Below, one piece after another: positions 4,129-52,316 of a stretch of DNA of 64,000 nt; position 1 is the stretch's first letter; every line of letters begins with the position of its first letter. Source of the DNA: Amycolatopsis taiwanensis DSM 45107 (lineage in GTDB: Bacteria; Actinomycetota; Actinomycetes; Mycobacteriales; Pseudonocardiaceae); the NCBI RefSeq assembly GCF_000519205.1, contig NZ_JAFB01000005.1, positions 37,724-101,723 of the forward strand, written 5' to 3'. The translations under genes were made by a program, and so were the position numbers. The notes under the pieces were generated by a model. The model saw nothing but the letters and a program-made list of their open reading frames with translations, was not told where the DNA came from and ran no database searches.

Positions 4129-5289
4129 GTGCCGCTTCCCCTTTTCTCCCTGATGCTGGTCGTCTTCAGCCTCACCACCGGCGAGTTCGTGATCGCGGGC
4201 ATCCTGCCCGATACCGCCACCGGCCTGTCGGTATCGGTGCCGGCAGCCGGTCTACTGGTCACCGCCTACGCGATCGGCATGATCATCGGCGGCCCCCTGG
4301 TCACCCTCGCCACCGCACGGGTGGCCCGCAAGCCGCTCATCGCGGGCCTGATCGGCGTGTCCGTGCTCGGCAACCTGGGGTCAGCCCTCGCCCCCAGCTA
4401 CCCCCTCGCCCTGGTCGCGCGGTTCGTCGCCGGCCTGGTCGTGGCCACGTTCTTCGCCGTGGCACTCGCCGCCGCCATTGCGATGGCGCCGGCCGGCCGG
4501 CACGCCTCCACCGTGGCAAAGGTGACTATGGGCCTGAACCTGGGCATCGTCCTGGGCACCCCGATCGGCACCCTGATCGGTCACCACCTCGGCTGGCGAG
4601 CCACCTTCGGCGCGGTCGCCGCCCTCAGCATCATCGCCCTGCTGCTGGTGCTGCGGTTCGTCCCCGCCCAACCCACACCGGCGGCCGCATCGATACGCGG
4701 CGAACTGCGCGCACTCGCCGACCGCGACGTCTGGTTGGCGATCACCCTCACCGCGCTCGGGAACCTGGGCATCGTAACGGTCTTCACCTACATCACCCCG
4801 CTGCTCACCCAAGTCAGCGGATTCAGCAGCGAAACGATCCCGGCCCTGCTGCTCTTCTACGGTGCCGGCGCCATCGCGGGCAACCTCCTCGGCGGGCGGC
4901 TGGCCGACAAGGCCCTGCTGCCTTCACTGGTCGGCCTGCTCATCACACTCGCCGCGGCTCTCGGCCTGGCCTGGCTGGCCAGCCCGGTCAAACCCCTGAT
5001 GGCCGCACTGACCCTGGTCCTCGGCGTCCTCGCCTTCGCGATCATCCCGGGCATGCAAACCCGCGTCATCACCGCCGCGAGCGCGGCGCCCACCCTGGCC
5101 GTCGCCGTCAACGCCGCCGGCTTCCAACTCGCCGCCGCGGTCGCCGGCTGGCTCGGCGGCCAGGTCATCACCAGCGGACTGGGACCACGCTGGATCTACC
5201 CCCTCGCCGCACTCCTCACCATCGCCGGCCTCGGCATCGCCCTGCACACGCTGCGGGGTGACCGCCGAACAGCCGAGACGCGCTCTTGA
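4129..5289 (+). CDS. MFS transporter (DHA1-type sugar/drug efflux)
   Basis: A 12-TM profile. The GTG start sits after a GGAGGAG RBS. The ORF-track extension back to 3973 overlaps marR and is rejected. Confidence 0.85.
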   Translation: MPLPLFSLMLVVFSLTTGEFVIAGILPDTATGLSVSVPAAGLLVTAYAIGMIIGGPLVTLATARVARKPLIAGLIGVSVLGNLGSALAPSYPLALVARFVAGLVVATFFAVALAAAIAMAPAGRHASTVAKVTMGLNLGIVLGTPIGTLIGHHLGWRATFGAVAALSIIALLLVLRFVPAQPTPAAASIRGELRALADRDVWLAITLTALGNLGIVTVFTYITPLLTQVSGFSSETIPALLLFYGAGAIAGNLLGGRLADKALLPSLVGLLITLAAALGLAWLASPVKPLMAALTLVLGVLAFAIIPGMQTRVITAASAAPTLAVAVNAAGFQLAAAVAGWLGGQVITSGLGPRWIYPLAALLTIAGLGIALHTLRGDRRTAETRS

Positions 5290-13280: not shown

Positions 13281-13586
13281 TGGCTTCCTCCTCGACCGTT
13301 GGAACTCGCCGATCGCGACCGCGGCGATCGCATCACGAGGTAGTCGTCACCGATGAGTCCCGCACGACAACCTCGGCGAAAATTCTTGGTCGCAGACTCA
13401 GGCCCTCGCCGGCCCCAGCCGATCGAAGGTCATTCGCAGCTCCGGCGGCAAGCCCGAGGTGACCGACGGCCCGTTCGTCGAGAGCAAGGCGTTCATGGGC
13501 GGCTTTTTGTGCGACCGATTTGGCGACGTGGGCAACCGTATTCGTGTCCGGCCTCGTTTTGTCCGGCGAGGGCAAAGGAGCAGAGG

Positions 13587-14092
13587 GTGGGAGTTCGCGA
13601 CGACGAGTTCGTCGAGTTCGTGCAGCGGTGTTCGATGCCGCTGCGCCGGACGGCGTTCCTGGTGTGCGGGGACTGGCATCGCGCCGAGGATCTGGTGCAA
13701 ACCACGCTCGCGAAGGTCTTCCGGGCGTGGTCGAGGGTGCGCGGGATGGACCGGCGGGAGGCCTATGCCCGGCAGGTCCTGATGCGCACGGTCATCGACG
13801 AGTCGCGCCGGTTCTGGCACCGGGAACGACCGTCCGACGCCTTGCCGGACCGGGCCGGGCCGGGCCGGACGTGAACAGCGACCTGTCCATGGACCTGCGG
13901 CGCGCGCTGGCCGCGTTACCCGTACGGCAACGGGCCACGTTGGTGCTGCGTCACTGGGAGGATCTCCCGGTCCACGAGGTCGCCCGATTGCTGCGGTGTA
14001 CCGAGGGAACGGTCAAAAGCCAGTCTGCCAAGGCCCTCACCGCGTTGCGAACCATGATCGGCACTGATCAACTGCTGGAGGGCTACCAGTGA
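13587..14092 (+). pseudogene. ECF (sigma-70 family) sigma factor, frameshifted in a (CGGGC)3 repeat
   Basis: Region 2 (VGVRDDEFVEFVQRCSMPLRRTAFLVCGDWHRAEDLVQTTLAKVFRAW) is in frame 0 and ends at 13874. Region 4 (DLRRALAALPVRQRATLVLRHWEDLPVHEVARLL..GTVKSQ) continues in frame 2 to 14092. The junction lies in ccgggccgggccgggccgg (13851-13868). Removing one 5-nt unit fuses the two frames. Confidence 0.7.
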
Positions 14093-14919
14093 ACATCGAT
14101 GACAATGCGGACCACCGCTGGGCCAACGCACTGTTGGACCGAGCTGTTGGCACCGAACCGGAACTGGGCTTCCGGGCCGAGGACGTGCTGGCCAGAGCTC
14201 GTCGCCAGGTCGCCAGGCGGCGTGCCGCGCTGACCGGCGCCCTCACCGCAACGGCGGTGCTGGGAACCGGCCTGCTGGTCGGCCACGGCGGCTCGCCGCC
14301 ATCGGGGGTGGAGGCCGGCAACGGTGGTTCGACAGTCCCGAGTCCAGTCGCCCCCAGTTCTGCGGCCCCTACCACCGTCTACGGAGTGGAGGGCCCGCTC
14401 GTCCTCGATGCGCACGGCAGGGCGTTGACCGCGAAACTCGCCGACGCGCACCTCATCCCGCCCGGTGTGCAGGAAAGCACGGACAAGTACTACGGCGGCG
14501 AACCACTCGTCTTCTACAAGCTGATCAACGGCCAGAACGTGGACAGCTACGTCGCCCAGGCGACGCTCACCGACTCCCACGGGGCGGGTCACCTGGTTGT
14601 GCAATTGCTCAAATATCAGCGGGGAATCAACTGCGTCGCAGTAGAGAATCCACAGGCGTGCCGCGTGCAGACCCTGCCCGACGGCAGCCGAATCACCGTC
14701 CTCCGATACACCCCCGAGCCTTCGCCGGGTGAGCCGACCATCCAGTGGATTGTGGAGCTGGTGCGCCCGGACGGCACCGCGGTGGACGCCATGAGCGGCA
14801 ACTGGAGCATGGACGGCGACAAGAACACGGGCGGCATCGACCATGCGACCGGGGCCGAACCACCCCTGAACGACGACGCGCTCGTTCGGCTGGTCCAGCT
14901 GCCCGGCCTGACCCTCTGA
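14089..14919 (+). CDS. putative anti-sigma factor (single-pass membrane protein)
   Basis: Its GTG start overlaps the sigma stop (GTGA). It has an N-terminal cytoplasmic segment, a TM helix (ALTGALTATAVLGTGLLVG) and an extracytoplasmic domain. Confidence 0.6.
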   Translation: MNIDDNADHRWANALLDRAVGTEPELGFRAEDVLARARRQVARRRAALTGALTATAVLGTGLLVGHGGSPPSGVEAGNGGSTVPSPVAPSSAAPTTVYGVEGPLVLDAHGRALTAKLADAHLIPPGVQESTDKYYGGEPLVFYKLINGQNVDSYVAQATLTDSHGAGHLVVQLLKYQRGINCVAVENPQACRVQTLPDGSRITVLRYTPEPSPGEPTIQWIVELVRPDGTAVDAMSGNWSMDGDKNTGGIDHATGAEPPLNDDALVRLVQLPGLTL

Positions 14920-27646: not shown

Positions 27647-27964
27647 CGGAGGAGCAGAGTCATGAGTGTGCACAATTCGCGTATACGCGCCGGTATCGCC
27701 ACCGCTGCCGGTTCTCCTGTCACTCGCACCATCGTGCGGTGTCTCATCGGGTGTGCCATTACCGCACTCACGGGGCGGATCAGCGCAGCGGAGCGGCCCG
27801 CTTCGAATACCTGCGCTTCGGGGTCTCGCTAGCTTGATCCGGGGAACAGGCGGCCGACCCCGTCAACCCAGAGCCATACTTGTGCCCGTCGCGAGTATCG
27901 AAGTCGGTTGGGGCGGGTTGGGCCGATTTCGGCGTTCTTGCCGGAACCTCGGAACTCGTCACAA

Positions 27965-28270
27965 ACCCAGAACTCACCTCCTTCGCCCCAGAACTCAGCC
28001 ACCCGAACCCAGAACTCGCCCACCTGCACCCAGAATTCAGCCACCTGAACCCAGAACTCGCCCTCCCCAGCCGGGGACACGCCAGCACCTGGCGTGTCCC
28101 CGGTTCAGGCACCCGAGTTCCCGGTTCAGGTGCCTGAGTTCCCGGTTCAGGTGCCTGAGTTCCCGGTTCAGGTGCCTGAGTTCTCGGTTCAGGTGCCTGA
28201 GTTCCCGGTTCAGGTGCCTGAGTTCCCGGTTCGGTCGGGCGTGTCCCCGGTCCAGGCACTTGAGTTCCGG
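27965..28270. repeat. 306-bp imperfect palindrome of 21-bp tandem units: L1-L5 inverted and degenerate, R1-R8 direct, R2/R3/R5/R6 identical, around a perfect 14-bp inverted-repeat centre
   Basis: Seen directly. The unit is ttcaggtgcctgagttcccgg; each unit has an inner TCAGG-TG-CCTGA near-palindrome. The centre is ccggggacacgcca-gcacc-tggcgtgtccccgg (28070-28102). Confidence 0.9.
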
Positions 28271-28526
28271 GTTGGAAACAACAGATTTCGAAGGCGGGAT
28301 TGCCCCGGCAGGACGGCTGCTTCGAAGCGATGGTCGAACGTACGTGGTCGAGTTCGGGAAGAGTCCCGGCCAGCTGTCAAGGCGACGGGCGTTACGCGGT
28401 GTCCAGCGATGCTTGATGTTGGGCGTTATGGGCATTACCGATGTCCACCAACTCGACGGAGTCCCGCCGGCGTACGAGCGAACGCGAGCTCCGATGGCAT
28501 TGTCGCAGTTGGACTAGTCTGGCCTC

Positions 28527-42385: not shown

Positions 42386-43142
42386 ATGTCTCCGCGGTCG
42401 TAGAGTTCACGTTGCGCACCAAGGAAGTGCGCGCGTCCAGGGTGTTGTTGAGGGTGAAGCTGACCAGGTCGGGTCGGTAGCGGTCGTCGGAGAACTCGAC
42501 GGCGGCGCCGGCCGAGTTCCTGGCCAGCCGGCGTTGCCGCAGCAGCGGCGCACCGACGGTGACGTCCAAAGTGTCCGCGTCGGTCTCGTCGGCGGGCACG
42601 GCGTCGATGACGTGCGACGCGGAGGCGAAGTCGATGCCGCGCGACTGCAGGTAGGCCCAGAGTGAGCCCGAATCGCAGTCGAAGTCGAACAGCAGGCGGC
42701 CGACCGGCTCGATGAACGAGCCACGCTCCAACAGCGTCGGCTGCCCGTCGAGCAGGCGTTGCCGCAACACGCTGACCACCCGCTGCCCCGGCTCGATGCC
42801 CAGTTGTGCGGCGATCTCGGGCGTCGCCGGCCGCAGCGCGAGTTCGAGCGTGCGCTGCCCGGGCGTGCGGCCGAGGTCGTGCGCCCACGCCGAGAACGAG
42901 AGCAGCGTGTCGAACGGCTGACCGAGCGCGTCGTGCCGGACCGTCGGCGGCTTGCCCCGCCCGCCCGCGATCAGCCCTTCGGAGCGCAGCGCCGCGAGCG
43001 CCTGGCGGACCGGTCCGCGCGAGGTCGACCACTCCGAGCACAGCTGCGACTCCGACGGGACCGGCTGCCCGATGGCGAGGTCGCCGCGCCGGATCCGCTG
43101 GCGCAGGTCGTCCGCGATCTGTTCGTGAAGGGGCGTGGACAC
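42381..43142 (-). CDS. GntR-family (HutC/PhnF-like, UTRA domain) regulator
   Basis: A wHTH N-terminus is followed by a UTRA effector domain. Confidence 0.85.
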   Translation of the reverse strand: MSTPLHEQIADDLRQRIRRGDLAIGQPVPSESQLCSEWSTSRGPVRQALAALRSEGLIAGGRGKPPTVRHDALGQPFDTLLSFSAWAHDLGRTPGQRTLELALRPATPEIAAQLGIEPGQRVVSVLRQRLLDGQPTLLERGSFIEPVGRLLFDFDCDSGSLWAYLQSRGIDFASASHVIDAVPADETDADTLDVTVGAPLLRQRRLARNSAGAAVEFSDDRYRPDLVSFTLNNTLDARTSLVRNVNSTTAETS

Positions 43143-52189: not shown

Positions 52190-52243
52190 TCACTTCCCGC
52201 GGAAGCGGATTGATGTTGTCGCAGCGATGACCTGGGAAGAGAG

Positions 52244-52316
52244 TGGGCCGCCCGGGGCTCGAACCCGGAACCTATGGATTAAAAGTCCACAGCTCTACCA
52301 ATTGAGCTAACGGCCC
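52244..52316 (-). tRNA. tRNA-Lys (anticodon UUU), CCA not encoded
   Basis: The cloverleaf was folded manually. The acceptor is GGGCCGT/GCGGCCC, the D-arm GCTC-AATTGGTA-GAGC, the anticodon arm GTGGA-CTTTTAA-TCCAT, and the T-arm CCGGG-TTCGAGC-CCCGG, with discriminator A. Confidence 0.9.

Follow-up and report, generated by a model that had tools for sequence, protein, structure and literature searches.

A single-unit repeat expansion has probably inactivated a SigE-family ECF sigma factor gene in one strain of Amycolatopsis taiwanensis

The ECF sigma factor gene described here carries one surplus CCGGG unit that shifts the reading frame between its two conserved domains. It is very likely a genuine, recent and strain-specific frameshift pseudogene of the SigE family that arose by slippage, and we regard the break as accidental, not programmed. 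The gene lies within a 64-kb stretch of DNA, referred to in full length as the window, and all positions given are those of the window.

The sigma gene is divided at a pentanucleotide tract

The locus comprises the following features, in order of position.

13530-13560, + strand: ECF-type promoter-like motif GGGCAACC-N15-CTCGTTTT, a conserved block in 8 orthologous loci
13575-13580, + strand: Shine-Dalgarno sequence AAGGAG, 6 nt before the GTG start of the sigma gene; AAGGAGCAG is conserved in 8 of 8 loci
13587-13874, + strand: 5' fragment of the sigma gene, 95 codons, with the sigma-2 domain (Sigma70_r2, E 5.7e-10)
13844-13868, + strand: pentanucleotide tract, GCCGG x5, that is CCGGA-(CCGGG)3-CCGGA, called by Tandem Repeats Finder
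13871-14092, + strand: 3' fragment of the sigma gene, in the -1 frame, with the sigma-4 domain (Sigma70_r4_2, E 3.1e-13)
14089-14919, + strand: intact partner gene, a putative anti-sigma factor of 276 aa, joined to the sigma stop by a GTGA overlap

The 5' open reading frame runs from the GTG at 13587 to a TGA at 13872-13874 and encodes the Sigma70_r2 domain (PF04542; 39.3 bits, cut-off 24). The Sigma70_r4_2 domain (PF08281; 49.6 bits, cut-off 25.7) is encoded in the -1 frame, which ends at the TGA at 14090-14092. The first-pass annotation of this DNA had placed conserved regions 2 and 4 in different frames with the break at a triplicated CGGGC unit, and both statements are borne out: CGGGCCGGGCCGGGC, or (CGGGC)3, occupies exactly 13851-13865 and is nested in a (CCGGR)5 tract at 13844-13868, which is detected as a period-5 array of 5.0 copies. 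The sequence from 13844 to 13874 reads GCCGGA CCGGG CCGGG CCGGG CCGGA CGTGA. The frame breaks at 13850-13868, and the out-of-frame tail of the 5' product is the tripeptide GRT followed by the stop codon.

In the window copy no single uninterrupted polypeptide contains both sigma domains. Because the reading frame is broken and an early stop follows, the copy is classed as a pseudogene of the SigE family (TIGR02983) and not as a functional member. The 5' fragment is identical to a 95-aa protein named 'sigma factor' (WP_342668893.1) on a 402-kb NCBI contig. The 3' fragment opens as a 73-codon reading frame whose GTG at 13871 overlaps the upstream TGA in the tetranucleotide GTGA (13871-13874), and no Shine-Dalgarno-like sequence was found upstream of this GTG.

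Removal of one 5-nt unit yields a single open reading frame of 166 aa (501 nt including the stop). Only after this removal does the protein pass the threshold of the TIGR02983 model 'SigE family RNA polymerase sigma factor', with 158.1 bits where 141.55 are required. The earlier proposal that deletion of one unit restores an uninterrupted sigma factor is thus supported by the single frame, by the family model and by the intact two-unit allele of a conspecific strain described below, and needs correction only in length, which is 166 aa and not 167. A compensating second indel was also considered and rejected: the sigma-4 frame stays at -1 as far as its stop, and the alignment with the conspecific allele has only one gap in the gene.

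A search for the tract pattern, exact or with one mismatch, found three matches, all at the sigma locus; a shuffled window is expected to give 0.17. Perfect repeats of at least three units whose length is not a multiple of three occur at two more sites in the same 64 kb. These are tetranucleotide repeats of three units, (GCCG)3 at 4488-4501 and (CCCG)3 at 42956-42968. Given these two sites, the tract at the sigma gene is in itself not exceptional, and short repeats of this kind are better seen as background in a genome of 68% GC.

A second strain and more distant orthologues carry the gene intact

The closest comparison is a conspecific locus (GCA_030269425.1, BSTI01000026.1; L001), which shares 98.6% identity with the window across 6.5 kb. 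Between 10586 and 17092, 67 substitutions and 5 indels separate the two, and on this level of divergence the two assemblies named Amycolatopsis taiwanensis represent different strains of one species. At the tract, the conspecific locus reads CCGGA CCGGG CCGGG CCGGA where the window reads CCGGA CCGGG CCGGG CCGGG CCGGA, and this is the only length difference within the sigma gene. A homologue search identified the sister product as an annotated, intact 166-aa SigE-family RNA polymerase sigma factor (GLY70770.1 / WP_285490051.1), 99% identical to the repaired window sequence.

Six further orthologues, with identities of 74-89%, were collected by exact-protein look-ups and genome scans: one JGI contig at 89%, one Logan contig at 88%, A. 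pigmentata, a second JGI contig at 85% and two MAGs. Among the matches listed by protein-guided scans of genome and metagenome contigs, A. taiwanensis and A. pigmentata did not appear, and the closest loci were reached through the exact-protein look-ups. All six are 501 nt long and uninterrupted, the 5-nt insertion of the window being the only length difference. In the alignments, one CCGGG unit (for instance 13850-13854) is surplus in the window against every orthologue, each of which shows a single 5-nt gap. The two-frame arrangement is therefore unique to the window among the seven orthologues compared, all of which have a single frame. The first-pass annotation had suggested comparison with orthologues as a check on the repeat count; with the sister strain and six others intact, the frameshift is common to none of them.

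The tract itself is degenerate in all six orthologues from outside A. taiwanensis, as in the locus L083, which reads CCGGA GCGGG CAGGC CCGCA. From these alignments, the near-perfect repeat appears to have arisen in the A. taiwanensis lineage and to have expanded later in one strain. Two broader searches gave no further alleles: the frame break was absent among the best 80 metagenome matches listed as closest to the query, and a scan of JGI metagenome contigs with the flanks of the tract (CGTCCGACGCCYTGCCGGA-N5-30-CGTGAACAGCGACCTGTCC), which accepts any tract length, returned 0 matches.

The substitutions within the gene bear on the timing of the event. The window and the sister strain differ by seven substitutions in the sigma gene, six of them synonymous, and outgroup comparison polarises the sole replacement, V51A, to the sister branch. 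Two to four substitutions can be placed on the window branch, every one of them synonymous, which argues that purifying selection acted on the gene until recently. The four remaining indels that separate the two strains in the 6.5 kb (4, 6, 1 and 8 nt) fall outside called genes.

The promoter-like region and the upstream gene relic

The upstream regions of the eight orthologous loci are otherwise unalignable and have in common two blocks, the promoter-like motif and AAGGAGCAG just before the start codon. The motif at 13530-13560 resembles ECF promoters of the GGAAC...CGT class, and it presumably serves as the promoter of an autoregulated operon. The pattern GCAACC-N(14-20)-CTCGTT has a single match in the window (0.04 expected), and no further copies of the motif, which would have marked candidate regulon members, were found in the window. 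In the window, neither the promoter-like motif nor the Shine-Dalgarno site nor the partner gene shows any damage.

Farther upstream, 13400-13530 holds the relic of a YCII/DGPF-family gene (…GGKPEVTDGPFVESKAFMGGF…). The relic matches residues 61-97 of PDB entry 1s7i (PA1349) with an E-value of 8e-4 and has no match in Pfam or NCBIfam. Both A. taiwanensis assemblies have it in degraded form, and an 8-nt indel at 13506 distinguishes them there.

The downstream partner gene

The stop codon of the sigma gene and the GTG of the partner gene overlap in GTGA at 14089-14092, and a GGAGG lies 7 nt upstream of the partner start. The first-pass annotation had described a sigma stop overlapping the GTG of a membrane-spanning, anti-sigma-like gene that is itself intact. 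The overlap is as described, and the protein has one hydrophobic segment, at residues 46-65. The gene is likewise intact, its 276-aa product being 99% identical and equal in length to the partner of the strain with the intact sigma gene. The anti-sigma label finds support in position and topology and none in a family or fold match. The sigma-partner pair with its 4-nt overlap is kept in five orthologous loci (L001, L083, L084, L085 and L086), and the flanking genes differ.

By hydropathy, the protein has an N-terminus of about 45 residues ending in RRQVARRR ahead of its single hydrophobic segment, a pattern that would fit a single-pass protein with a cytoplasmic N-terminus. An AF2 model places a helix at residues 30-57, with low confidence over the N-terminal 90 residues. 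The hydrophobic segment is followed by a low-complexity spacer and then by a beta-rich domain of about 180 aa (residues 95-276), modelled with a pLDDT of about 90. Two cysteines in this putatively extracytoplasmic domain are invariant among the homologues compared.

The partner had no family match in Pfam (E up to 10) or NCBIfam, and a Foldseek search of PDB folds with the AF2 model returned no match with an E-value below 0.009. An EagT6/PsbP-like fold came up in weak matches with E-values of 0.01 or above, which we did not trust. The protein showed no recognisable anti-sigma domain, whether zf-HC2/ZAS, RskA or one of any other described family or fold. Eighteen homologues were detected, all named 'hypothetical protein'; close homologues number about 17 (including P0122-P0137) and all come from genomes or metagenomes of Amycolatopsis/Pseudonocardiaceae. 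As judged from these homologues, the partner defines a small, unannotated protein family. Gene position and membrane topology make a putative anti-sigma factor a reasonable assignment.

Predicted consequences of the extra unit

The solved structures nearest to the sigma factor are M. tuberculosis SigE (9m9d_F, E 1e-8) and SigL (6dv9_F). In the two-unit allele, the tract encodes the residues PDRAGPD in the linker between sigma-2 and sigma-4. In RNA polymerase holoenzyme this linker runs through the active-centre cleft and the RNA exit channel, and both open-complex formation and promoter escape depend on it (PMC6648896). Three ECFs that were split at the linker lost their function, and non-covalent re-association of the halves did not rescue it (PMC7090010).

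The likely course of events begins with slipped-strand mispairing during replication of a CCGGA-CCGGG-CCGGG-CCGGA tract, which duplicated one CCGGG unit and added 5 nt. Translation from the GTG at 13587 now leaves the frame inside the linker and stops at the TGA at 13872-13874, giving a 95-aa sigma-2 fragment that lacks the -35-binding sigma-4 domain. The sigma-4 domain could at most arise as a separate product, if ribosomes reinitiate, inefficiently, at the overlapping GTG at 13871; such a fragment is possible and would probably be scarce, since no Shine-Dalgarno sequence precedes this codon. As ECFs cut in the linker are inactive, the window strain has most likely lost the activity of this sigma factor. 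With it, induction of the sigma gene's own promoter at 13530-13560 and of the co-transcribed partner gene would probably be lost as well.

Alternative readings of the broken gene

The first-pass annotation had left three readings open: a recent inactivating slippage, an on/off contingency switch, or a sequencing or assembly error. The first fits the data best, and the error reading has been weakened. If the strain truly had two CCGGG units and an intact gene, the third unit would be an artefact, and short GC-rich repeats are indeed difficult regions. The Logan assemblies of SRR3947916 (L002, 5.8 kb) and SRR29904086 (L003, 3.9 kb), however, are 100% identical to the window, all three units included, and the gene caller applied to the Logan contigs likewise divides the sigma gene, giving ORFs of 95 aa and 73 aa. 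That the allele turns up again in the assemblies of two SRA runs, which another assembler produced and which are identical over 3.9-5.8 kb, renders an assembly artefact unlikely, even though the NCBI assembly may share its reads with the Logan assembly of SRR3947916. Gain of a whole 5-nt unit is moreover not a typical short-read error, and the sigma gene contains no homopolymer of six or more. The remaining indels against the sister strain all avoid coding sequence, as expected of real divergence filtered by selection and not of error-prone assembly. We therefore consider an artefact quite improbable. In the case of a simple-sequence contingency locus, the tract would gain and lose units and so set the ECF regulon reversibly to OFF (three units) or ON (two units). 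Two strains of one species do differ by exactly one unit, two in GCA_030269425.1 and three in the window, which amounts to two genotypes, and nothing beyond this difference speaks for a switch. Low-copy tetranucleotide tracts can act as slow, reversible switches, as in icaC of S. aureus, where a TTTA tract has 4-6 units among isolates (PMC4117637). Reversible short-tract frameshifts are also documented in another actinobacterium, for M. tuberculosis glpK (bioRxiv 10.1101/717272; PMC10334774). Such slow switching of low-copy tracts and the existence of mycobacterial short-tract phase variation are the reasons why we keep the reading at all, as an unlikely one. Against it, the tract has three perfect units (two in the ON allele; the imperfect CCGGA flanks would have to be included to reach five) and falls short of the five-unit minimum applied to phase-variable tetra- and pentanucleotide tracts (PMC6321876), and both Logan assemblies of the window genotype have three units with no variant. 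Two further sites in these 64 kb carry comparable short repeats, and the degenerate tract of every orthologue from outside A. taiwanensis indicates that selection has not maintained a repeat here. A stronger form, in which a low-copy CCGGG switch governs a whole ECF regulon in a free-living, non-pathogenic actinomycete and the GTGA-coupled halves of the OFF state may keep residual or altered activity, is again quite unlikely.

Accepting the three-unit allele as real, one might still suppose that it yields a working protein. The 95-aa and 73-aa fragments could be produced by termination-reinitiation at the GTGA at 13871-13874 and assemble on RNA polymerase as a two-piece sigma factor. The new 4-nt stop/start overlap mirrors the native sigma/partner junction in form (GTGAAC), the 73-aa ORF is predicted by a gene caller, and both sigma domains are undamaged. 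The GTG at 13871, however, is without a Shine-Dalgarno sequence, and the arrangement occurs in no orthologue and nowhere among the best 80 metagenome matches listed. The published work on ECFs also weighs against such a protein, as linker-split factors lose function even with their halves non-covalently joined (PMC7090010) and the linker itself acts in initiation (PMC6648896). A functional two-piece sigma factor is accordingly very unlikely. Restoration of the full-length protein from the three-unit allele by programmed -1 ribosomal frameshifting or transcriptional slippage would draw on the facts that the two frames are related by -1 and that the -1 frame is open throughout. It was rejected, as having next to no probability, on finding that the zero frame from 13587 to 13874 has neither an X_XXY_YYZ slippery heptamer nor a homopolymer of six or more and that neither the conspecific strain nor any of the orthologues has the arrangement.

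Other features of the window

Two opposed arrays of 21-nt units lie at 27964-28273, one of about 5 copies of AACCCAGAACTCAGCCACCCG (27964-28068) and one of about 8 copies of CCCGGTTCAGGTGCCTGAGTT (28096-28273). Jointly the arrays make up an imperfect palindrome of 122 nt with 74% complementarity and a 3-nt centre near 28087, and they are covered only by overlapping, probably spurious ORFs. The sole Rfam/ARAGORN match in the window is a tRNA-Lys (anticodon TTT) at 52243-52316 on the - strand.

Significance

Taken as a slippage-derived pseudogene, the locus records an ordinary and recent gene-inactivating mutation. Its value is mainly one of annotation, in that two short ORFs, one of them deposited as WP_342668893.1, become a single frameshifted SigE-family ECF sigma pseudogene. 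The window strain is probably without this sigma response, which the strain of GCA_030269425.1 retains, and the two strains thus offer a natural knock-out/wild-type pair for an uncharacterised sigma/partner module. Were the tract to switch reversibly, it would be a rare case of a soil-actinomycete regulator subject to SSR-driven phase variation; nothing here points in that direction.

Comparison with known systems

Classical SSR contingency loci of Neisseria, Haemophilus and Campylobacter, and the homopolymer of M. tuberculosis glpK, resemble the present tract in that the number of units sets the frame and with it an ON or OFF state. The classical tracts are long (at least five units for tetra- and pentanucleotides, at least seven for G/C) and maintained across strains, whereas the tract described here has two or three perfect units and is unconserved. 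The icaC gene of S. aureus (PMC4117637) is alike in that one unit whose length is not a multiple of three is gained in a low-copy repeat, with frameshift and truncation as the result, and the alleles vary within a species. The icaC work demonstrated reversibility, RecA independence and a selective advantage by experiment and in about 9% of genomes, whereas the window allele is known from a comparison of two strains.

Separation of the two sigma domains also has precedents. SigO-RsoA of Bacillus subtilis is a natural two-subunit sigma factor and a conserved, co-evolved pair. It shares with the window locus the placement of sigma-2 and sigma-4 on separate polypeptides, but the split in the window is an accident of one strain. 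The engineered split ECFs (PMC7090010) are likewise divided at the linker into separate sigma-2 and sigma-4 polypeptides and were inactive unless religated by inteins; in the window the same division came about by accident in a single strain.

Among SigE-family ECFs of actinomycetes (TIGR02983), the window locus stands apart in two respects: its reading frame is broken in the linker by the additional 5 nt, and its partner belongs to no described anti-sigma family. In overall layout it follows the family, with a sigma2-linker-sigma4 architecture of about 166 aa, an upstream ECF-like promoter and an overlapping, co-oriented downstream gene for a membrane protein.
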